In this document: positions 9,602 through 24,000 of the stretch, piece by piece
Position numbering within the stretch: the first letter of the stretch is position 1
How the letters are laid out: each line of letters begins with the position of its first letter
Assembly: GCA_004022145.1 (NCBI GenBank)
Contig: RCNU01000001.1
Reading direction: 5' to 3' (one strand)
DNA length: 64,000 bases
Source of the DNA: Paecilomyces variotii
Lineage: Eukaryota
Position numbers and translations under genes: made by a program
Notes under the pieces: generated by a model
Database searches by the model: none
The model's input: only the letters and a program-made list of their open reading frames with translations
Told to the model about the DNA's origin: nothing

Positions 9602-12030
9602 ATTCATTTCAAACATGTATAAATATTTCCAATGAGTGAGACAATAATAGAATACTAATGTTTATCATTTGCTCCTGACAGAAATAGCTCACGGCCGCGC
9701 AGTACCTTTAAGAACGTCCACTTGAGCATAAATCACAGAACACTTCGTGTCCTGCTGATTGTCGGCGCTCACGGCTTCTTTGGAGATGAGCTGCAAACGG
9801 CTTGTACTACCCTATTGAAAGAGGGGTAGGATAAGAAACGCGAAGCCTCATTGATCTACCTATATAGGATCAAAGAAGATACGCCGGAATTAGCAAAGCT
9901 CAAAATTAGTGGCGGAGGCAGTGCTCCAGGCAGCTGAATTCTAGGATAGAGTCCGTGGGTATAAGAGCTGATAGATTCCGGTATCCTCTAGTTCTCCAAG
10001 CAATCAAGAGATTATTCCTGTTTCAGATGCTCCTTCAGAACCTTTGCTTCCGTAATCCTAGATCTTCATACTGATCGACACGAAGTTCAGGAACAGACAC
10101 CTTTAGTCCCAGCATACTCAGCCACATCCCTCCTTTAGCATACAGGGTGACATTTCCGGCGGCTGAGCTGTCGATACAATCTGGCATCGATCGGAAGCGA
10201 GTAGATCAGCTACCGTCAGGTACGGAGCACTTTCTTTGCGGCTGAGCTGTCGATTATACAACTTTAGTGCTGTGACTCTAATTCGTTGCCTGATGGCTTT
10301 CTGCTACTCGACCAAAAAGGAGCACTCCTAGTTGGTCTACCTGGATCTCTAACATTGCCTACCTAGTCGAAAATGAGAAACGATGCGATGCAACCATCAC
10401 GGATATGCCTGGAACTACATGTCCGCTTTCGACTGACCGTGTTCAGATGCATATTATTGTTATTGCAAGGCCGATGCACAATTCCAGTTTGGGTAAGGCT
10501 TACTTACTATAGTAACGATTGCCACAAGGCTGCGGAAGATAGCGCAAGATCAAAGCGTTAAGTTAGCCCGATAGTGAGGTTTATTGGAGTAGGTAGTCGA
10601 CTGATGGGGTGCCCTTCGGGTAAGTAGTGCTCTCTAGGCTCTTTTCGAAGATGTTGACTGTCATCTTGTAAGGCCGTCAAAATGTCGTGTCGATACATAT
10701 TAACCACAACCCTCGAAATCGGCTCATGTACGAGCTATTGAAGAGTCTGCCATATGGGCCATTTTTTTCCGAATATTTCAAAATGGACCAAAGAACGCGC
10801 ATTCAATCGCTTCACAGCCATCCATCAATTGGAATTCTTAATCACTTTCCGCCCCCAACTTGCCAGATCCACCATCCTTGACCACGTGGTTAGCAAATGC
10901 TCATGAATTTTGGCCAAACCCCTGACCCACGGATGCTCTCCTCGACGTCAGGTACGCCCGGAAATACTTCCCTTGGGATCTTCTGGTGATCCTCATGTCG
11001 GTTGCTTCCGTGGTATCTTAGTCCTCTATTACAAACCACGGATGCTCTCTGGCAGGCGCTATCTACCTGGGCTGCAATGTTTCCCCGGCACCTGCCACGT
11101 GTGTTTTAGGAGTTTAGCTTGGTGGTACTAGAATTCTGCTCTTCGATATGGCTTGCATAGATGTGATAAAATAACTAATCAAGCCTCCTTCGCTCGGCAG
11201 TTGTTATGGATTGGCCTCCGGGGAGTGGAGATAGATCTACCACAATTTTTGGCTTTATATCCTGATCCTACCAATCGTTATCACTAATTTGCGGTGAGAA
11301 AGAGAGATCCAAGATAAGGTGAGAAGATTGGTGCATCCAGCGGCTTCTGAGGCTGAACACTAGGTTGCCTTGTCTTTGCTTTGTTGAGAATTCAACGTCT
11401 CAGCCTTGCGCTATCTAAATATAACCTCCTCGTCTTTGCTTTTATGAGAGTCCAGGAATAAGAGACGTCTCAGCCTTGCGCTAGATATCACCCGGGTGTG
11501 CCTCGCGCCTTGAACTTGAACGGGATTTGCAGTCCTGAGTCCACAATGCCTTTCCAGAAAATTACCAGGGTTGCACAATTGTTGATCATTACTTACACTA
11601 GATACTAATCTGCAGGCAACCAATATGAAAGTGACCAGCTCACCCTGTTGGGACCAGGGTGAATACACGCCCAGTGAAGGTGATAACTCCGGAATCCGTG
11701 CTCTTAGACAGCTTTGATCATTGCCATTCCTGACATTATCGTCTAATCTCTCATTTACACTGCCGCTGAAATATAAACCTTGAACACTTTTACCCCGTTG
11801 AACAAAAAACAATCATCTGAAAATCTATATTGTGAAACGTTCTTTGACCTCCAAATTCGTCCTTTACCTGAGTTGCATGAGCACTGAGTCTTGTATCACC
11901 GACAGGCTACCACTTCAGACCACACAGCACAGCAGTTGGTAGCAAGACGGCAGCTCTTCAAAACAGATTCCAGGCCAAGATGCTTGAGGCAGAAATCCGT
12001 CATGATGCTTCTTCCTGGAGTACCCTTACC

Positions 12031-14403
12031 ATGTCTGAGACGTCATCAATCAGAGTCACCGAATTCACTGTCGGCTGGATTTGCGCTCTGACGGACGAGT
12101 TTATCGCAGCCCGACAGATGCTAGATGAGATTTATACAATTAAAATTGCCAAGTCACATCTGGATGAAAACGTCTACACATGCGGGCGGATTGGGAGACA
12201 TCGGGTTGTGATCGCCTCCCTACCACAAGGTCGTTATGGTCAAGCATCCACTTTCAAAGTGGCATCAGGGATGATGACTACATTTCCATCAATTAAAATT
12301 AGTCTGCTAGTCGGAATTGGCGGCGGAGCGCCAAACTTGAACGTCGAGGGCAGGGATATACGGCTCGGCGACATTGTTGTCGGAACTGCTGTGCTTCAGT
12401 ATACTTCCGGGAAGCGAACACACCACGGACTCGAGAACTTTTACCCTGTCCGTTACATGGATAGTAACCTTCTCGGTCATTCGCAAATTCTCGAAGCGCA
12501 TATTTTCGAAGATAAGCTAAACCTCCAGAGAGCTGCAGAGGAAATGATCAAGAAAACAGGCAAGGCCAAGTTTCAACGCCCTGACCCAGAATCGGACCGT
12601 CTTTACGAATCGGATTACGTTCATGCAGGTAAAGCTTGTGACTGCTTGGGCATTCATTCTAAATGTCAATCCCATGTGGTCGATAGAGAGCCACGTGAAG
12701 AGAACGAGCTGGTTCAAGTTCACGTCGGCAAAATCGGTTCCGCCGATCAAGTCATGAAAGACGCCAGTACACGAGACCAGCTTACCAACGCTCACGACAT
12801 CATATGCTTCGAAATGGAATGCGCTGCTCTGGTGGACAACTTGCGTTGCATAACTATTCGTGGAATATGCGATTATTCGGATTCACACAAGAACGACCGA
12901 TGGCACGGATATGCGGCTGCTGTTGCTGCTGTCTACGCTAAAGCTCTGCTAGAAATCATGCCTTCCTTGGAGGTAGAAGGTCCCCGGGGCATTACTCAGC
13001 AGATTCAGGAATCGATCGATAACGTTGCCAAGAGAGTAACAGAACTAGAGGGACAGGGTGGTCAAAAGGACAAGCTCAGGATCACGGAGGAAGCGGTCGA
13101 GTCCCTTCGAGATGGGATCAACTTGATTGAAAAAGAGCAACAGGAGCTATTGGATACACATCTAGACCACTCTGATCAACTACGCGAAATGCAGGAACAA
13201 CATAGACAGTTATGCGAATCTCTACAAGGGTTGGATCAAATCATCGATCAGCGGATAGCTGCTAGTACGGACGAGCTCAGACAAGAGTGGCAGACTCTAA
13301 AGGACAATGTGGAGGACCAATCTTCGAGACTGGAAACATTACGAAGAGGGTTTGCTCATTGTTCTCGGGCAATTGAAGATACATCATCTGTGTTACGAAT
13401 AATTGGTGATACGATAGGGAATAAAGGAGTTAGCGATGCTGGAAAGATAACGGGAGGGATAAACAACGTCCTTCAAGACACCATTTCTGGAAACGCTCGC
13501 TCAAAGTCCCCTGGACACGCACCGACGCAGCCTAAATTGAATGGTGGAGATAGAGCAACCGACCATCTACATCAGCTCTTACCTCCAAAGGATGTTTTCT
13601 CGAAGAGCAACCTTCGTTTGAAGAATTTCCTAAAGTCAGCAACATCTATCACTATCAGACGATCTGGGCATAGCGGAAGAGAAGATTCGCAAATCCAGAC
13701 AGGCGGTACCATTCCGAGGATCGAAAACCAATATTCGCCTCGATCTTCTCCATATATTCTCAGTCCAGCAGATGTATCAATTCGCTCGTCGCTCTCTTTA
13801 TCTTCTCATATTTCGACTGATCGTGCCTCAGAACGACGTACATATCATGGAGCCATGAACGGCAATGCCGAGAATGGACAGAGTCCAAGAAATTCTGTTG
13901 AATTCTTCCAACCACGAAGGAAGCAGCTGACGGAGCTAACCGATCATTCCACAAAGGTCCGCGATGAAAATCCAGGTAGACCAACAAGGACTCCTCCTTC
14001 GTGGTCGACTGGCAGAAAGCCATCAGCCCGCCAACCCCTGACCCCACAAATTCGACGAGATCGCCCGGAGGTTCAACAAATCAACATGAATGCACGGACA
14101 ACAAGGACAAGTATAGAAAGCTCTTCCTCTTCCTCGAGGTGGCAACAAACAAGCCACTCGTCCATCAACGAAGCTACGAATGGGGTGTTGTCAAGCTATA
14201 CGCCGCGCGCACCAGGCTCCAGATACAGTTCAACGAGGCAAACCCAGGGAGCGGTGGATGCGAATCGTCGCCATCCTCCAGATGAGACATACCAGGCCGA
14301 AGCTGAACCCACTCCCTCTTTCGCGAAGAGACGAGAGTTTTTTGAGCAAATGCAAGATGATAGAAGACCATCGCTATATCGGGGAGACTCGCCGAATACC
14401 TAG
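12031..14403 (+). CDS. PNP_UDP_1 (Pfs/nucleoside phosphorylase) domain protein with coiled-coil and disordered C-terminus
   Basis: Motifs FTVGWICAL, LLVGIGGGAP, DIRLGDIVV, CFEMECAAL and IRGICDYSDSHKNDRWHGYAA are typical of fungal PNP_UDP domains. First ATG in frame is at 12031. Intronless. Confidence 0.88.
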   Translation: MSETSSIRVTEFTVGWICALTDEFIAARQMLDEIYTIKIAKSHLDENVYTCGRIGRHRVVIASLPQGRYGQASTFKVASGMMTTFPSIKISLLVGIGGGAPNLNVEGRDIRLGDIVVGTAVLQYTSGKRTHHGLENFYPVRYMDSNLLGHSQILEAHIFEDKLNLQRAAEEMIKKTGKAKFQRPDPESDRLYESDYVHAGKACDCLGIHSKCQSHVVDREPREENELVQVHVGKIGSADQVMKDASTRDQLTNAHDIICFEMECAALVDNLRCITIRGICDYSDSHKNDRWHGYAAAVAAVYAKALLEIMPSLEVEGPRGITQQIQESIDNVAKRVTELEGQGGQKDKLRITEEAVESLRDGINLIEKEQQELLDTHLDHSDQLREMQEQHRQLCESLQGLDQIIDQRIAASTDELRQEWQTLKDNVEDQSSRLETLRRGFAHCSRAIEDTSSVLRIIGDTIGNKGVSDAGKITGGINNVLQDTISGNARSKSPGHAPTQPKLNGGDRATDHLHQLLPPKDVFSKSNLRLKNFLKSATSITIRRSGHSGREDSQIQTGGTIPRIENQYSPRSSPYILSPADVSIRSSLSLSSHISTDRASERRTYHGAMNGNAENGQSPRNSVEFFQPRRKQLTELTDHSTKVRDENPGRPTRTPPSWSTGRKPSARQPLTPQIRRDRPEVQQINMNARTTRTSIESSSSSSRWQQTSHSSINEATNGVLSSYTPRAPGSRYSSTRQTQGAVDANRRHPPDETYQAEAEPTPSFAKRREFFEQMQDDRRPSLYRGDSPNT

Positions 14404-14731
14404 TATTTCGTCGGCGATAAACTTATTACTAAGGTGTTTTGTAACATTATATTCTTGTAATCCAGTTATTCAGATGTTCTTTAACGATGGACTTCGTCTC
14501 TCCATATTTGAATATAGATCCGACTCTTAGTTAAGTAGTAATTACTCAGGACTTCTGCTTAGATCCGGGGAACCAGTCTCCCCCGCCCACACGGGAGGTT
14601 CTACAGATGGTTTGCATGCGAAGTCATCTCTGTAAATAATAGACTCCGCTGTTTTCATGTATATCATTCGAAAGGGAATCTCAAAATCTTTTCTCGAGCG
14701 GTTGCGTTACGCTGTGATTCTTTATGGAATT

Positions 14732-15919
14732 CTAATTACCCGCAGTTTTATCTGTGGTAATTTCGCCATCTGCTTTGCGCTTCTTCGCTATTCTTTTACT
14801 GCGACGCCTGTGTTCCCCGAAGCGCCTGCAGGCGATGCACTGTCCGTCGTCGTCAAAATAGTGCTCATCCCTAGATCAAGTGGGCATTCAACATTAGATA
14901 TTGTTCCCGTCGACATGATTACACAATGAAAGTAGAACTTACAGCTCTATCTCGCAGTTTTCGTGCGGCACGTTATCCCAGCAACCATCACAGCTACTTA
15001 TGCGATAGGTACAATCATTCAGGGCGGAAGTATGAAGGTTGTACCAGTTGTCAAACAGAGTCCCTTGGAACTTTGGACCTTGAGATGATCCATGTTCCAA
15101 GTTCCTCCCAACGGGCGTGAATTCTGCATCAGTGTCCTTGTCCACTGATACACGTTTGATGCTGACTGGAGGGCCGTAATCGACTTTATCTACCCACACC
15201 CACTCCACGCCATCCTCAAGCATATCTTCTTCATCGAGGTCTTCGTATAAACACGTCTCCATGGCCGGAGTCACATCCTGATCAAAGCGCACGAAGAAGA
15301 GTCCGTTCTGCTGAATATCTTCCCATGACCGACATTCCTTGGGAACAACAATGATAAAGCTGCGGTACCTCCTATCATATGGATGTAGATTCTCTCTCCA
15401 AAATTGAGGTGCACAGCACCAAGAGGGAACGATATGCGGTAGAGGCTCTTTCCCTCTTAGATTGAGGACTGCCTCCTGTGCAGCCTCCGCGACATCCTCT
15501 TCATCCATGCCAGCTGCTCTGGCAGTTGCTTCTGCGGCTGACGCTACCTCTCGATGTAGGTCATGGACAGCCTGTCGTCGGTAGATCTTCTCACGCCGAT
15601 GATGCTGTATGCACTCATCAATACTGTCTAAAGGCGCATATACGTCTATGCGCGGCCAGTAATTCCGCATATTGCCCGCCTCGCATATGGCCTCGCTCTG
15701 TAATAAATTCTTTCCAACCTCGCAGGGGCTAGGAACCAGGTCGTTGAAGCAGTATAGGTGGATGCTTAGCTTACAGATAGCCGAGGAAGGGGGACGCGTG
15801 CCGCCGACAACGGTGTAAGGTCGACCGGCATGATCATTGAACTGGTGAGCTTCGACCTCGACCTTCCTTGGACCCCTGCCACCGGTACTTTTGCGTGCTG
15901 TCTGTTTGGTGCGCGCCAT
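14732..15919 (-). CDS. Non-histone protein with histone H3 N-terminal tail, C-terminal Cys/His cluster and NLS (~371 aa)
   Basis: ATG at 15919 gives MARTKQTARKSTGGRGPRK. The ORF 'stop' lies inside a GTAAGT donor (intron 14871-14942, branch CTAAT, acceptor TAG). Exon 2 reads LDEHYFDDDGQCIACRRFGEHRRRSKRIAKKRKADGEITTDKTAGN*. Confidence 0.8.
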
Positions 15920-16835
15920 GCTGGAACTGGAGGTATAAAAAGAGAAGTAGCTGGCTTGCGCTCGCAACACTGCTTGGCGCTAAGTACCTAAGTAGTGACT
16001 TTCCACAATGATAAACTCAAAAACACATATTGAATCAACAGTCACAATAAAGGAAGCACATGTGCTGATTCAGAGCAAGATAGAGAGTCGTATACTCTTA
16101 TTTCTTCTCTATCAACATATACTCTCCTCTTTTGGAAAACTAGAAGCCCTGAGGCTTTACTGCCTGCTTGGCGGCCGCTGCTGCCTAGACAGATCTTCAC
16201 TTCAGTGTTAATAATCTGCGAGTCAAATCCTAGAGTGAGAAGGAAAACAACAAATGGAAGGTAAACTTGAGACAGATTCAGACCACCGCACCTGAAATGA
16301 GAAGGAAAGAATAAAACTAAAAGTACTGTCTGGCTTTTGCCTTTAAATATAGCATTGCCCTAGCAAGCATAAGCAATTTGGTAAGATCACTGAGGCACTG
16401 AATTGCTGGCCTAGATCTCAGATCTCAACTATTACATAGAGGGGTTGAGGTAAGGGTAAATATGCTCTCAATACTTGCACCTCGCGGGCGATCGTCGGGA
16501 CGCACTCTCTTACATTATATGTGATAGGTCTATAGTTGTTGAGATATTCAGGTTTAAAGAATAGCTATGTTGTATGTGAGACGGCACTGGCCAGGTCGCC
16601 CGGGAAATACGTTAATCTGTTAAGAGACTTGAAACTCCATAACGCCCTCGCTCATCAATCATAACTTCGTGGCCGCATATCACCAAACACAATCGTCCAA
16701 TGCCCATAATCAATATATAGGCATGAGAAAAGGAAGAAAACACAAGCAGAAATGCTAACAATACCCGAGATTCCAAATAAGGAAAGGAAAAAGCATAGAC
16801 AAGGGCATCACAAGTAATCATGGACGACAGTGCAA

Positions 16836-19326
16836 TTAGTCGCCGCGGTACTCGACACTTGCAGCATCGAAGACTCCCTTCTGTCTCTCCTGGCCACTGA
16901 CATGGTCTGGTTTCACGTATCGTGCTGTCAAAGCGAATCGAAGCTTCTTCTCTTTGTCCGGCTGAACGGCATGCTAGTGACGGGTTAGTGTGCTCTTCAT
17001 TGCCAAATATATTTAGTGTCTTACCTCGTAGTACTTCTGCAAGTTCTCACCGTGCATCACAACAAAGTCACCATGATGGATGCTCATCTTGATAAAGGTT
17101 GGAGGTTCTCGTCGTTTGTCGATCAGAGCTCTTCGCTGTTGTGCGTACGCCTCCTCTGTGATCTCTCCTCTCATGCGCTGGTCCTTAAGGATTGCTCTCT
17201 TGTCGTGCTGACAGCAGTGATCCAGTACAGGGTCCTCGGCAATCAGATTCTTGAGTTTGCTGCAACCGTAGTAGTATTTATACTTCATCCGGATACTCAT
17301 TGTCGCTTTCGCGCCGAGAGAGAGTGTCGCAATTGTCGGCCCAAGTGATGACTCTCCATCATCATGAAACTGGGACAAGGTTAGTCATAGCCTAGATGTG
17401 GTCTAGAGCGTACCTACTCCGATGGCCATGTCTTCGAAGTATCCTAGCATGAGAAGCTCGTTCGGGTGCAGCACAGAGCCTCCAGCAGCAGAAACAGCTT
17501 GCTCAGTCGCCCAGGTTAAGCGTCCTAGAGCGTTCATGATCTCAGGAGGCGCTTCATCGAATCCCTTGGAGTCAACCGAAACCACGTATTTGTACGGCAT
17601 GCCCTGGAGTAGTCTCTGGGTCAGCAAGCGGCCAAAGAGATTCCAGGTAAAGACGTACGTAGTTCACCGCGAAGTGAGAGGTCAGTGTACCTGCAACTTC
17701 TCGCGTATCAATGTCAGTGAACACAAAATTAAAACAGTAAGAATTGCACTTACCAACACTCTGCTGCAGGGGATATCGCCGCAAGCCGACATCCGCCACC
17801 TGTAGCTGCCGGAATAGGTCGTTCGGCCCATCTGGACGCGCTGTGGCCGCCTTGTTTGCAACGAAATGGGTGATAGTACCAACCCCATTCAGCGTATACG
17901 TGACTCGAGTGTAGTACGGAGCCAATGAACCTTTATCGACGTTTACCAGTGCATACCTGGAGTCGGCAAGGATAGCGCGTTGAACAGGACCGAGTTCGAA
18001 GTCATCAGAGACGGATCTTAACGAGATCGGTGCCATCCTCATCGTTTTCTCAAAGGTGCAGACTCCTGAAGGAGCTGCGTGGCGCTGGTCGATAGCGTCA
18101 GAGCACTTCCACCCCTTCCAGAACTTCCTGGAGATGCACTTTTTGCATTGCGGACACACGATGCCTTTCCAGGCCATGCGAGAATAGGTGGCGTCTGCAT
18201 CGTCTTCAGGAATCGTGGACAGGAGATCCGGAACAAGGCTATGTTCTGGTTGGGCCGTCGGATCAGGAGGGGTGCGTGAATTAAGGAAGTCGGGATGGTA
18301 GGTAAGGTTGGCAGGGGCGGGAGAACCGTTGAGCGTCCAGAACCGTGCGCAGGTCGAGTAAAGGCACATCCAGCCTTCGTTGAATATACGGAGGCTGTGG
18401 TGCGAGCACTCCGCGCACTGGATGCTTTCAGGCCGCGTGCTGAAATCGCGCGGCCACGCGGGAGCGGGGGTGCCCGGGGCTGCCCACCAGCTCTTCTCCG
18501 CCAGATCGACTTTCTCGAAACGGATCTTGGCCCCTTTTTTGCCGCCGACCTTCTCATACCATATGTTCGTGATTCGGAAGAAGGCCATCACGTTGTAACG
18601 GTGTGGGAGTTTCCTCCCAAGGACCGTGTTTCGGTCACCTGAAGGACGTCAGCAGATGTCAGGGGTCATGATGACTGTCAAAGCTATATATACCGATTAC
18701 AATCCCGACCGGCAGGCCGATCCTCCGGCTGTTCTCCAGAGCCCGGAACGCAGGCCCCTGCCCGTCCTGGTCTTTTATAGGGACCAGGTTCCCCTCCGCG
18801 TCCCTCTCGCACCCACCACCACTGTGAAGCAAGTTAGCAACTGTAGCAAAACTGATTTTGCAAGGAGACATACATCCTGGTGATGAGGATCTCCTCATCT
18901 ATATACGAGCGGACCCCGCTGTCCGCGTCCACCAGACAACCCCAGCACAGCTCGTCCCTGTAGTATATACCTCCCTGTAACGAACGGAACCAGGGCAGAG
19001 CATCGCAGAGGTCTGGTCGACTCTGGAGAAATGTCTTGTTAGTGAACGCTATCACGAAGACGGACTAGGCACTAACCTCTGCCCATGCTGGGGGCTGCCC
19101 GTGGACGGGCGCGGGGTCTTCCCCTCCCTTGGCGATTGCCGCAGCCGCTGCGGCGGAGACTGTAAATATTAGCAAATATTCAAAGCTAACTAGCATATCT
19201 GATGGATGAGCTTGAAATAGAGTGTAAGGACGATCACTTACCCCCTTTGCGGGCAGGTCTCGCCCGGGTTATACGGCCGGCGAGAACAGGGCCGGCGGCC
19301 TCCACTTGGCTAGTCTTCCTAGCCAT
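16836..19326 (-). CDS. Fungal AlkB-like 2OG-Fe(II) dioxygenase with N-terminal SAD/SRA-like region and Cys clusters
   Basis: Nine exons, with introns at about 19160-19241, 19023-19076, 18822-18873, 18639-18693, 17697-17753, 17604-17658, 17370-17417 and 16974-17024. The HxD motif is FHDDGE, the distal His is in QKYYEHAV, and the terminal motif is RFALTAR. Cys clusters are CAEC..C..C and CPQC..C. The N-terminal GQPPAWAE..LCDALPWFRSLQGG..ITRIGGG region resembles the SRA-like module. The start at 19326 is tentative. Confidence 0.85.
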
Positions 19327-19424: not shown

Positions 19425-19725
19425 GAGATTCAGGGAAGAATAACAGGAGCAGGGGAAAGAGAGGCGTGGCCAAGGACAGTACGAGTTCAGGGAGAAGATA
19501 CGTGCAGGGACAGAACCAGTCCAAGAAGAGGAGTAGTTCAAGGACAGGAGTCAGAGACACAAGTCAGGGGCAATAGTGCGGGAACAGGACGAGTCTAGAG
19601 ACAGAGATAGTTCGGGGACAGAAGTAAGCAGGAACAGAGGTAGTGCACGTATAGAAGTAGTCCAGGGACAGACGTGGTTCATGGATCGAAGTCAGAGACA
19701 GGAGTAAATCCAGGTACAGAAGTCA
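19425..19725. repeat. Degenerate 17-bp tandem repeat (consensus about GTYCAGGGACAGAAGTA)
   Basis: Successive units include ggccaaggacagtacga / gttcagggagaagatac / gtgcagggacagaacca / gtccaagaagaggagta and gtgcgggaacaggacga / gtctagagacagagata / gttcggggacagaagta ... gtccagggacagacgtg. Confidence 0.7.
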
Positions 19726-21010
19726 AGGCCAGTGATTCAGGAACGGCAGAAGTGCGAGTATAAGATGTGTCTCGATCTGGAGCGGCTATCTGTGTGAATA
19801 GGCAGGTTCTGCAGTCACGCAAGGTCTACCGAAGCACGCAGTTCTGTATGAGCACGCGTCCGTGATCGCACAGTTCTCACAGGTTCTGAAGTTTCCCAAG
19901 ACAGACAGTGTGTATACAGGAAGTTTCAATGTAGAAATCGAGGACAAGTCAGTGCTGGAAGGAGAGATGATAGTAGACGTGCATGTGAAGGGTGATACTA
20001 GTGCTGGATAGGGGATGTGCTGTTGGGAGAGATCTGCTGCTCGCAACTGGACCGGGAGAAAGAAAGGGAAGAAGAGAGAAAGAGAATGGGGTGCGAACGG
20101 GGGGTTTAATAGACGCGTGGGATCAGTCACTTTCAAGCACGTGCTTGGATGCTGTCCGTCACTGAGGAAAGGGGAAGCGAAGACACAGTGACGCGAAGGA
20201 GGGGTGTGAGTGGAGTGCAAGTGACGTGAAATTGTGGTTGAATCCAATCCTGCCAGGGTGGAGAGCTTTTCAGCATCTCGCCCTGCTTGTGAAGATGGGG
20301 ACTGCTGGCATAAGGGGGGCAACAATTGACGAGTTTGCGAAATCAGACTCACCTCCCTGCACCCAAAGTCAACAATTGCACAGTCTGGTTGATCACCCCG
20401 TTCAACAGGAGGGTATCGCTTCATTGACTTACCTGTATATATAAAAATAAAATAAAATAAAAAAGGTGTGTATATAAAAAAAATATAAAAAAAAAAGAAG
20501 AGAAAAGAAAAAAGACAAGGCAAGCCGGGAGGGCCCTTCGGAGGGCAGCGCAGCCCGGCGGTATATAGGATACCCACACCACCTTTCTCCCACCCACCCA
20601 AGTCGGGTATCCACTCGAGAACCTATGCAGACTCACCGGTCAGCTTCTTTCAGATATATCTCGCCATTCTCGCGTTCGATTCCCAGGAAGGAAACCTGCT
20701 CATGCGCGCGGCCCACCGTGCCTCGTCTCGGTCTGTGCCGATACCCGCGCAGTAGACGAGAACCACCAGCAATGGAGACAAACGATGGGAAATCATATCA
20801 CTTACCAGTGTATAATAGGTATTTATACCTATTTTCAAGATATATTATATAAAGACGTTGGCAGGAAAAGAAAAGAGAAAGAGAAAGAGAAAAAAAGAGA
20901 AGCAGGAAGAAGAAAGGAAGAAGAAGCTTTATATACCAACGGAGTTTGCCTCACGTCTCAGGTACCGCAGGAGAAGGGTATATATACTGGGGATATATTC
21001 CCCAGGCGAA

Positions 21011-21074
21011 TGGAGTCGGCAAGGATAGCGCGCTGATCAGGACCGAATTCGAAGTCGTCAGAAACGGATCTCAA
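21011..21074. repeat. 64-nt direct copy of AlkB coding sequence 17958-18021
   Basis: Ungapped alignment by eye gives 58/64 identity. Confidence 0.9.
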
Positions 21075-24000
21075 GCAACAAGCTGACGACACGAAAACGA
21101 AATATACAGTATATAAAAGAAGAAGAAAAAAGAAAGAGAAAAGAAGAAGAAGCAAAAAATGCACGGCAGAAAGTGCGTTTATACGGGCCTCAAAGGTGAG
21201 CTTGGGAAAAGCACATAACCATTAAAGCCACGTGCATATATACCGCAACAGACTTTTCGTTTGGTCAACATCGGCTGAAGCCTTTCAGCACTGGGTCTCT
21301 ATACTCGAAGACCTATAAAATGATGATTGCAAGACGGAGAGAGAGGATTAGAAGCTGGTGACTGGAAAGAATGAACCGGGAAAGAGTCGAAGTCAGAGAA
21401 TGTGTACGACAGGTTTTCAGATCGACAACGCGCTGACTTGTCCACAGAGTCTATGACTGGGTTTCTCGTCACCCATCTTCTCGTCAGATATTCCATTTTG
21501 GAGCCTAGCAGTCAGAATGGGACTAATGCCTCTTCTGTTAGCCATATTGTGGTAGCGTCCAATGCTGGAAACCTAATTTAGCGGATGTCTCCGAAGATGA
21601 TGTTCTGACTAGTTCGCAGGAAATAAGTTAGCTCAATGAGCACAAGTCTGATATATCATTGACATACAAATCTGGAAGCAGACAGTCCGAACCGAGATCT
21701 ATGAAACAGTCCTCCCCGGTACGGATCTATGGTCGTTGAACGTAACTCGGATGATCTGCGTGCCAAGACGTTCTAAAGGAAGCTAAGCTTGGACACGAGC
21801 GGGTATGAACCTTGCGCTAGAGATCGGTCCGATCACCGCAAATGCAGCGGACAAGAGGTTGATATGATCTTGATGTCTTCGTCGACTTGCGGTATTCGCA
21901 GAAAGTAAGAGAGGAGTTTCGGCAGAAGGATGTAGGGAGGCAGAGATGATCCGGATGATCGCGAAATTCCGACAGAAGTCCGAGCAGTCTCCCGTCGATG
22001 AAAACGTCTTATGATTCCCCGGCCAAGACGATGTTGGCCAAGTTGTCAAAGGAATGATGTCTATCAAAGGTTCATGGATGAAGATGATGAGTTTAGGACG
22101 AAGGAAAGGTTCCAGATATGAGCGTGATGGAGTGGTCTTCGCTCAAGACAAGAACTTGATCTCGACAAACGATAAGCGAGGAGATATGGAACACAGCAGA
22201 CGTCAGATATTTAAGAGCCCTTGTCTCGCTTTGAACCAGCTGCCACGTCTGTGTCTTCAGACCGCTGAAGCTGGCGCCTGTCCACAGGGATCAAGAAACG
22301 ATAATCTCAAACGCTGAATCCGGAGTTGTACGAGATGTTATGGGGTATTGTGACGAGGCTCCAAGTCCGGATAGAGTATCAGAGATGGTCCTCTATCCGA
22401 AGTAGTTGAGTGACATGAGCAGAGAGGAGGAAAGGATCAAGAGCTGGAGGAAGAAGAAATAAAATCAAGACCGGAAGTGAGGTGAACCTCTCTTCTTGAT
22501 CACAATCGCAGCTCTTTGTTCACTGGTGGTCTCGGCGGCGGCAAATATGATGCAATTGGCTGCATATACCATTCAATTTCACGGAGACCCGCATGAAGTA
22601 GAGTGCGGAATCTCACGGATGTTGCACAGCAGGTGGCTAGTGAGTTGTTTCAGGAAATGCGGCTCTGAAATGCGTGTACACATGTACAGTGTGCTATAGA
22701 AGCTATAAAACAAAGGATAGACTTGTTGAATAGCTATCAAGCGCAGTCCCACAGAAGAAGGTTATAATACAAACTCTTTGGGGAGGATAGAGTCTCTATA
22801 TTTCTCTAGTAAAGGTAGCTGATAGTGGAACTACTAACCCAGAGCTGTCAGTACTGAGGTACAGACCCAGAGAGAAAACCTCAATTGTTCAGGACACTTA
22901 CACTATCGCCGAGAGACCCTGGGTGACTAGTATATCAAGGAGGAATGTCCTGTTCTTAAACCCGGGGTTCTCCGCGAAGAATTCTCTGTTGATAAAAGCT
23001 CCGTTATCTGGAAGATGCAGGATTCATAAGGGAGTCAGCTTCGTGTTGAAAGCTTTTTAACTGGATGTATTGAGATGTCGGTATCCTAATGCAGGGATTT
23101 ATTCCTTCTACGAAGACCCGTCTGCCCAAAATAAACAGTAAGTATCTTACTAATTTCCCATGAGTTCACAGCTAGACTAAGATATACTGATTATGGAGTC
23201 CATCCGTGAGTCAAAAGGAACCGGGAATATGTTGGCAGAAACCGATTTTCCAGATGATAGATTCTGTATCGTATTAGAAAAGGAGCTAGCGTTCAGTATA
23301 ATACATGATGATGGCTAGGACGATAAGAAAAATAGCGCTATCAGTATTGCCCTACAACTATACGTATATGCATCCCGGATCGAGGCTACAATGCACCTAG
23401 ATTCTAATTAAAACAATACCATAATGTTACTATAAAGACCAGCTCGGCAAAACATGTAAATCCCGTATTATCTCAAATGGGTAGATATGAAGATAATCTT
23501 CCAACCGTATGTGGTGATCTATTTTTAAATCCTAGTACCCATCCGAGTGACATTAAAAAGTTTGCGAGTATATCAATATATGTTTCTCTCTAGAATAATG
23601 AATTAGTGTATGAGAATAACCGGCGGAACCGCCATGCTTATCTAATCGATGCGGGGAGCCGTCAGGGAGAAAACGCGGGGAAAATCCGGGGATTCGAACG
23701 CGATCTCCGTCCAGGGATGGTAGATGCGCCAGATCACGCCGCAGGATCAAGGCCGGGATCGCAGGGATATACTGAACTTTTAACCTGGAAAAGTAATATG
23801 TTTCTCAGCGGGTTATTCGCTTACGATATATGCCGTAAGCAGCTGCAGAGGGGATAACTACTTCGATCCATAAGAGGTCCGTGAGGCGACAAGATTACCG
23901 AGAGCCGAGAGAGGCGTTAGTTATGCTTAGTACAGGCAACATGCCAATTCGTTGTTTCTGGTGAATAAATGCAAAGTTAGCCCAGTAGCGATATGCGAAG

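Follow-up and report, generated by a model that had tools for sequence, protein, structure and literature searches.

Three neighbouring genes of the filamentous fungus Paecilomyces variotii raise the question of whether adjacency on a chromosome reflects a shared task. They lie in a stretch of 64,000 nucleotides from contig RCNU01000001.1 of assembly GCA_004022145.1 (hereafter the window) and encode an SRA-like/AlkB protein, a protein of 371 amino acids whose N-terminus repeats the tail of histone H3 (hereafter the mimic), and a protein with a PNP_UDP domain. A preliminary description of the locus had proposed that a modified-DNA oxidase next to an H3 decoy could jointly counter or tune heterochromatin or genome defence, with the PNP_UDP protein as a third member of a chromatin or conflict module. 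We lean, if cautiously, towards a different answer: that these are three separate genes and not one module, that the AlkB gene stands beside the mimic gene only through an inversion in the P. variotii lineage, and that the mimic would act off chromatin as a ligand for factors that bind the H3 tail.

The likeness of the mimic to H3 is close and confined to its N-terminus. Residues 1-20 align with histone H3 chains of the PDB (phmmer, E 1e-6), and over residues 2-19, 16 of 18 positions are identical to the H3 tail ARTKQTARKSTGGKAPRK, the changes being K14R and A15G. There is no histone-fold core: the matches to PDB H3 chains end at residue 20, no Pfam family is matched at E≤0.05 and no PDB fold at E≤0.001. 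No further H3-tail motif occurs in the six frames of the window. A search with the mimic open reading frame returned 81 proteins at E≤0.001, the named ones from Paecilomyces, Talaromyces, many Aspergillus sections, Hypocreales (Fusarium, Neonectria, Dactylonectria, Ilyonectria, Mariannaea and Clonostachys) and Dothideomycetes. The consensus of the 63 hits that were aligned (the other 18, mostly truncated, merged or shorter models, were omitted) starts MARTKQTARKSTGGxAPRK, and this family-wide consensus makes the H3-tail mimicry stronger than the preliminary description could see. Columns of this alignment have a mean conservation of 0.72 over residues 1-10 and of 0.62 over residues 11-20, with 0.84 for the best core block; the tail bins are as conserved as most core blocks, and the conservation spans residues 1-18 rather than a single epitope. 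The 13-residue tail core ARTKQTARKSTGG is retained with at most two ungapped mismatches in 26 of the 81 hits and with at most four in 41. At H3 position 14, Arg outnumbers Lys both among these 41 close-tail hits (21 to 9) and among the 63 aligned sequences (29 to 15). The AlphaFold2 model of the mimic leaves the tail disordered, with a predicted local distance difference test score (pLDDT) of 51 and 63 in the first two ten-residue blocks.

The family is small: of 1.84 billion representatives searched with its profile, only 73 matched at E≤0.001. A tree of 42 named members, from which the first 40 alignment columns (the tail) had been removed and unnamed rows and most fragments omitted, gathered the Hypocreales into one clade (Shimodaira-Hasegawa-like approximate likelihood ratio test 99) and otherwise followed taxonomy. 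This points to vertical descent with losses from a common ancestor of these classes, the tail having been long retained. One could instead envision the tail as left over from an ancient capture of an H3 exon, now drifting and functionless, and its degeneracy in several lineages would suit such an origin; however, drift would not be expected to leave a near-exact tail in three Pezizomycotina classes on a vertically inherited tree, nor to spare the tail among the 12 P. variotii alleles, where it varies at scattered single positions only while the rest of the protein is polymorphic. We therefore regard a relic as extremely unlikely.

The profile matches also include proteins of 705-737 amino acids (P0400, P0403, P0410, P0416 and P0398, the named ones from Aureobasidium), which place a second architecture on the same tail module. 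They share profile positions 1-119 only, that is, the H3-like tail and the first module (hhalign probability 98.7); in Pfam nothing matches their long C-terminal part, which draws from the ESM Atlas only clusters scoring under 0.9. Because the Aureobasidium long forms share only the tail and the first ~120 amino acids, the tail therefore travels with that module. Two unusual gene models in the family were set aside. A Fusarium austroafricanum protein joining an arrestin to the mimic (P0363) looks like a merged gene model, and a 224-residue extension in one A. alliaceus mimic model (P0325) has no Pfam match inside it and no similarity to the PNP protein of the window.

Histone mimics are known in influenza NS1, G9a, LIG1 and the SNAG domain, and to our knowledge such mimics copy about 4-8 residues, often internal or C-terminal. 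Further examples, as given in the available text of their sources, are the N-terminus of Sgo1, NOP16, EZHIP and a JC virus protein (PMC9253516, 10.1101/2023.06.13.544862, 10.1101/585729, 10.1101/2024.11.04.621823). By analogy with these, the mimic family would be a non-histone protein showing a histone-tail sequence that histone-binding factors can recognise. It is unlike them in that some 19 consecutive residues are copied from the true N-terminus, in an endogenous fungal protein, and on a domain without a known fold. No description of such a fungal family was found in the literature, nor were the locus tags of six members, in a search that left subscription journals and bioRxiv supplements uncovered. 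The H3-tail family is thus, apparently, an old and undescribed Pezizomycotina family with an unusually complete histone mimicry.

The body that carries the tail was modelled by AlphaFold2 from the 63-sequence alignment with a pLDDT of 85.4 and a predicted template-modelling score (pTM) of 0.84. Its invariant or near-invariant positions are D92, C103, H106, H107, E110, K111, R114, H162, W167, D213, C303, C310, C313, H319 and C322, and it ends in a basic C-terminal helix, RRRSKRIAKKRK. The mimic has no Pfam match, and its model has no Foldseek match at E≤0.001 in the PDB or BFVD; the ESM Atlas gave no usable match, and the Atlas's own model of the mimic is poor (pLDDT 0.35). A likeness to alpha/beta hydrolases (best E 0.04-0.06, template-modelling score about 0.12 by Foldseek) was treated as noise. 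The conserved Cys, His and acidic residues may form a metal site or belong to an enzyme.

How might such a protein work? With Ala in second position, the initiator Met should be cleaved off, and the mimic would then have a free N-terminus identical to that of H3. Once the Met is removed, a free, disordered tail would project from the compact domain, and the basic C-terminal helix would take the mimic to the nucleus, where the tail could be an off-chromatin ligand or substrate for enzymes that act on the H3 K4/K9 region and for proteins that read it. As a decoy it would titrate H3 readers and writers, or, as an adaptor, recruit them to its own domain; an Arg at H3 position 14 would block acetylation or ubiquitylation there. 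We consider it most likely that the mimic is a nuclear decoy, substrate or adaptor for H3-tail-binding factors, although we infer every functional step of this scheme.

Alternatively, the tail might be an import or chaperone signal, borrowing the import route of H3 (of the Kap123/importin-4 type) or a histone chaperone. According to the available portion of PMC5677370, H3 residues 1-28 form a nuclear localisation signal for Kap123 that is centred on K14 with small flanking residues and tolerates K14R in vivo, and the family does keep G-G-[R/K]-A around position 14. The same source, in that portion, gives a Kap123 consensus that requires a second Lys at least 7 residues downstream (H3 K23); however, the mimic of the window has no Lys downstream after K18, and the likeness of the family to H3 stops near residue 20. 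Moreover, the mimic has a classical basic cluster of its own at the C-terminus, and residues 1-9, which are dispensable for the importin signal, are as conserved as residues 10-19. An import signal is thus the weaker reading when set against an off-chromatin H3-tail ligand, and we hold it to be improbable.

Whether the neighbours of the mimic share its task was judged by synteny, read in other fungi from locus tags, accession numbers and the sizes of contigs. The suggestion that the SRA/AlkB oxidase, the H3 decoy and the PNP_UDP protein act jointly on heterochromatin or genome defence draws on domain identities that suit a chromatin theme, and on the consecutive tags of the three genes in at least four of the listed P. 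variotii strains (e.g., DTO166G4_1243, _1244 and _1245), with all three lying within three or four tags in two more. However, the AlkB and mimic genes are 13 genes apart in both strains of P. lecythidis (006550/006563; 007029/007042) and 10 apart in P. variotii No. 5 (GAD91872, GAD91862). The P. lecythidis order is MlrC (007025), AlkB (007029), CoA ligase (007030), then WD40 and the mimic (007042), whereas in P. variotii it is MlrC (1236), WD40 (1241), ligase (1242), AlkB (1243), mimic (1244) and PNP (1245). Comparison of these orders indicates that the AlkB-ligase-WD40 block is inverted between the two species and that the adjacency in the window is therefore lineage-specific. The two genes are also on different contigs in all six Aspergillus assemblies that list both (A. 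ibericus, A. ellipticus, A. sclerotioniger, A. heteromorphus, A. ambiguus and A. terreus, the last with tags HFD88_008323 and HFD88_007090). Their phyletic ranges differ as well: the named mimic matches include no Penicillium or Onygenales, where AlkB occurs, and the named AlkB matches listed include no Hypocreales, where the mimic occurs. Finally, AlkB alleles are near-invariant within P. variotii, unlike those of the mimic and PNP genes. The joint AlkB and H3-decoy module thus does not survive the synteny check that the preliminary description had set beforehand, and a three-gene chromatin or anti-silencing module appears very unlikely to us.

Several observations nevertheless weigh against our own view of three separate genes and an off-chromatin H3-tail ligand. 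More than four ungapped mismatches to the tail core are found in 40 of the 81 hits; of these 40, seven are models cut short at the N-terminus, which begin within the conserved core, and some retain a shifted [RK]STGG[KR]APRK piece. Degenerate tails are seen in the A. fumigatus group, in A. alliaceus and in P. lecythidis, and the Fusarium fujikuroi complex has L or P in place of K9; in such lineages the body of the mimic thus does its work with no faithful tail. It is also conceivable that the conserved Cys, His, Asp and Glu residues belong to an enzyme and that its activity, and not the tail, is the point of the protein. Nuclear localisation is read only from the basic helix, and the scheme as a whole is a prediction. 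As to synteny, the different contigs in the draft Aspergillus assemblies were deduced from contig sizes and locus tags and not from DNA.

The relation of the mimic to the PNP gene is less simple. The PNP_UDP domain recognised in the preliminary description scores above the curated Pfam cut-off (PNP_UDP_1, 27.4 bits against 25.1; E 2.7e-6). As far as the available text of PMC4986451 goes, PNP_UDP is a common N-terminal domain of fungal NLRs (NOD-like receptors, NOD being the nucleotide-binding oligomerization domain), and the nearest relatives of the window protein, out of 1926 proteins at E≤0.001 among 8000 scored candidates, are mostly such N-terminal domains; many of the best 120 of 1926 carry NACHT or NB-ARC together with ANK, WD or TPR repeats. 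The window PNP protein itself has in Pfam no NACHT or NB-ARC and no ANK, WD or TPR repeats, and so is not of NLR (STAND) architecture. It thus has the PNP_UDP_1 domain in common with fungal NLRs and with bacterial PNP-family ATP nucleosidase effectors, as the available parts of PMC4986451, PMC9815663 and 10.1101/2023.01.24.525353 present them, and is unlike NLRs in having a coiled coil and a disordered tail in place of the NOD and repeats. The weak Pfam matches in the coiled-coil stretch (see the table) are read as a composition and coiled-coil signal and not as homology. On its sequence, the gene is a NOD-less relative of NLR effector domains, unremarkable except for its high polymorphism, for which family membership would suggest a nucleosidase-type effector role.

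Two features bring this gene closer to the mimic than the AlkB gene is. First, in A. alliaceus the mimic and PNP genes are two accession numbers apart in three strains (KAE8391437/KAE8391439, ETB97_001524/ETB97_001522 and KAB8231345/KAB8231343), the A. alliaceus PNP proteins (P0194 and P0195) being the only PNP matches of that species in the best 120 of 1926; the window protein is 48% identical to P0194 over 322 amino acids. Second, both genes are unusually polymorphic within P. variotii. Median pairwise identity between distinct alleles in clusters, counted over aligned residues only in gene models that differ in length and from strains that may include cryptic species, is 94.9% for the mimic (minimum 88.0%, n=12) and 82.1% for PNP (minimum 73.0%, n=8), against 99.3% for AlkB (minimum 97.0%, n=10); the C-terminal half is the most variable part of PNP. 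One could thus imagine a conflict or allorecognition pair, in which the H3-tail protein would be bait or decoy for attackers or readers of H3 tails and the NOD-less PNP_UDP protein the responding effector. The convergent arrangement in P. variotii, with 328 bp between the genes, and the frequency of PNP_UDP in fungal NLRs would fit such a pair. However, linkage is seen in two lineages only, one of which, A. alliaceus, has a degenerate mimic tail, and microsynteny can last without a functional link. Other section Flavi species and Penicillium have PNP orthologs but no listed mimic, whereas P. lecythidis and strain No. 5 have the mimic and no close PNP ortholog among the best 120 of 1926. In Dactylonectria estremocensis, the two genes share a contig but are 213 accession numbers apart, and in the other species present in both lists they are on different contigs. 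Of the conflict reading put forward in the preliminary description, the mimic-PNP half thus keeps some support, from near neighbourhood in A. alliaceus and shared polymorphism, while the AlkB part was not borne out. A two-gene conflict-type pair would be compatible with these two observations, which do not show one, and on the whole we consider it unlikely.

A more far-reaching scheme is, in our estimate, more doubtful still. The mimic might be an endogenous, nuclear, free H3 tail, several hundred million years old, serving to sense or bait whatever reads, modifies or cleaves H3 tails, be it the heterochromatin machinery or mycoviral and bacterial factors. Its wiring to a neighbouring, hyper-polymorphic NOD-less PNP_UDP effector in P. 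variotii and A. alliaceus would then form an immune or allorecognition system with a decoy-and-guard logic, by analogy with plant integrated decoys.

The third gene has a clearer identity. The preliminary calls of an SRA-like and an AlkB domain are both upheld by the fold and motif evidence. The C-terminal domain matches 2OG-FeII_Oxy_2 (PF13532) at residues 401-651 (Pfam, E 1.6e-20), as do all 40 aligned orthologs; H520, D522, H634, R645 and R651 are invariant in the 40 sequences and align with the HxD motif, the distal His and the RxxxxxR motif of human ALKBH3. Against the PDB, the family profile matches chains of ALKBH3 (E 1.7e-7) and the SRA domain of SUVH5 (E 0.012). An AlphaFold2 model built from the 40-sequence alignment (pLDDT 84.0, pTM 0.80) resembles ALKBH2/3 and AlkB in its C-terminal half (Foldseek E about 2e-9, target-normalised template-modelling score [TMt] about 0.7). 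Its N-terminal domain resembles SRA domains (SUVH5, E 7.2e-7, TMt 0.61; UHRF1, 9e-7; NP95, 1e-6), with the SRA-like TagI endonuclease also among the Foldseek matches (E about 1e-6). Pfam SAD_SRA is matched by 3 of the 40 orthologs (best 1.9e-5), and the protein of the window has no such match at E≤1. Two conserved Cys clusters lie between the two domains. Nearly all of the 91 homologs listed are from Eurotiomycetes (Eurotiales and Onygenales), at ~630-800 amino acids and mostly with one listed match per species.

According to the available text of Iyer, Zhang and Aravind (2016, PMC4738411), several fungi have an AlkB dioxygenase fused to a divergent SAD(SRA) domain, a fusion for which recognition and demethylation of N6-methyladenine (m6A) was suggested. 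As far as that text goes, the window protein has the same architecture, with SRA N-terminal to AlkB, and nothing material differs; on its sequence, the gene is thus a member of an already published family. While the paper predicts m6A demethylation, the sequence and modelled fold of the window protein are nearest to the repair enzymes ALKBH3 and ALKBH2. The Fusarium ALKBH genes in the available part of PMC10826363 include no SRA fusion. We predict a conserved nucleic-acid oxidative demethylase or repair enzyme, in which the divergent SRA domain would recognise a modified base, or flip it out, for the ALKBH2/3-like dioxygenase to oxidise.

Some further features of the AlkB protein were seen. 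An insert lies between the HxD motif and the distal His, residues that are 112 amino acids apart, and a helix within it (P0310 residues 575-600, ~17142-17219) gives a weak SHOCT match in 9 of the 40 orthologs (best E 1.4e-5). The A. costaricaensis and A. vadensis orthologs (P0118 and P0123) are annotated at 961-996 amino acids with an N-terminal D-isomer 2-hydroxyacid dehydrogenase (PF00389, PF02826), which is either a true fusion or the product of merged gene models. The N-terminal MARKTSQ of the window protein was considered as a second H3 mimic and rejected, the H3-like stretch not being conserved in orthologs.

All three genes are where the preliminary description had placed them, as confirmed by reading of the open frames and by mapping (tblastn) of the annotated P. 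variotii proteins P0324, P0001 and P0310 back onto the window. The mimic open reading frame is 100% identical to the annotated hypothetical protein P0001 (371 amino acids), whose coding match covers 15919-14735 (-). The first Met codon of its open frame is the ATG at 15919, its 72-nucleotide GT..AG intron falls before the last 46 codons, and TAG is at 14734-14732. The exons of the AlkB gene sum to 2037 nucleotides, or 3 x 679 codons, in agreement with P0310 (678 amino acids), with ATG at 19326 and the stop at 16838-16836. For the PNP gene, the start given earlier, 12031, is the second in-frame Met; P0324 (807 amino acids) maps to 11980-14400 (+) at 100% identity and the stop ends at 14403. The arrangement had likewise been correctly described. 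The AlkB and mimic genes are co-directional, ~0.9 kb apart (916 bp from the AlkB stop to the mimic ATG), the PNP gene converges on the mimic with the 328 bp lying between the two stops, and the patch is gene-poor, with ~5 kb of gene-free DNA separating AlkB from the CoA-ligase gene. No convincing gene was found in 19.4-24.4 kb of the window, and the AlkB and CoA-ligase genes have consecutive locus tags in other strains. The locus is flanked by RhoGEF on one side and by the AMP-binding CoA ligase and the WD40 gene on the other. Coordinates are collected in the table.

Table. Positions in the window of the three genes and of their parts.
Feature	Position	Strand	Details and basis
PNP_UDP gene, NOD-less, 807 aa	11980..14403	+	Single exon; N-terminal PNP_UDP domain, coiled coil, Ser/Thr/Arg-rich disordered tail
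PNP_UDP_1 domain, aa 57-308	12148..12903	+	Pfam
Coiled-coil stretch, aa about 322-463	12943..13368	+	Borderline or sub-threshold Pfam matches: MAP65_ASE1, ATG17_like, Exonuc_VII_L
H3-tail mimic gene, 371 aa	14732..15919	-	Exon 1 15919-14943; intron 14942-14871; exon 2 14870-14732 including stop
H3-like N-terminal tail, codons 2-20	15860..15916	-	phmmer against PDB; family consensus
Mimic globular body	14735..15859	-	Alignment and AlphaFold2 model; N-terminal beta module with DHxG, helix motif ECIxHHRREK, PLPHIVPxW loop
Mimic body, C-terminal part			Cys/His cluster C303, C310, C313, H319, C322, C337, C340, then basic C-terminal helix
SRA-like/AlkB gene, 678 aa	16836..19326	-	Nine exons; exact spliced mapping of P0310 and tblastn
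SRA-like/AlkB exons 1-5	19326-19242, 19159-19077, 19022-18874, 18821-18694, 18638-17754	-
SRA-like/AlkB exons 6-9	17696-17659, 17603-17418, 17369-17025, 16973-16836	-
Divergent SAD/SRA-like domain, aa ~50-205	18469..19097 (introns included)	-	Foldseek and family profile
AlkB-type 2-oxoglutarate-Fe(II) dioxygenase domain, aa 401-651	16920..17883 (introns included)	-	Pfam and Foldseek

Repeats and compositional features were also seen around these genes. A 64-nucleotide piece of an AlkB coding exon (17958-18021) recurs in the same orientation at 21011-21074, ~3 kb upstream in the gene-free stretch, at 91% identity, and translated similarity in the region of the copy extends over 37 amino acids at 59% (tblastn match 21074-20982); the copy may be a scar of the rearrangement that brought AlkB beside the mimic. 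Directly upstream of the AlkB start are three degenerate copies of a ~63-nucleotide unit at a spacing of 67-74 nucleotides (19502-19705), with purine-rich low-complexity runs farther upstream (20488-21164), and GC skew is strongly positive over 19-24 kb of the window. A 57-nucleotide inverted repeat, 88% complementary, has one arm in intergenic DNA upstream of the PNP gene (10290-10346) and the other in the variable C-terminal coding region of PNP (13970-14026). As to the neighbour genes, one protein cluster at 90% identity contains both the 524-residue WD40 protein and the 582-residue CoA ligase, which is probably due to a merged gene model in some strain, so that membership there is to be read cautiously.

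The locus carries a general point, in that a suggestive adjacency can be the product of a recent inversion. Histone mimicry is mostly known from short motifs in viral and a few animal proteins; what sets the mimic family apart is that nearly the whole H3 tail from K4 to K18 stands at a true N-terminus, conserved across three classes of filamentous fungi, on a domain without a structural relative. The mimic would thus be a natural probe for which interactions of the H3 tail matter off chromatin, and in Aspergillus, Fusarium, Talaromyces and Clonostachys it may regulate heterochromatin, and through it secondary metabolism and genome defence.

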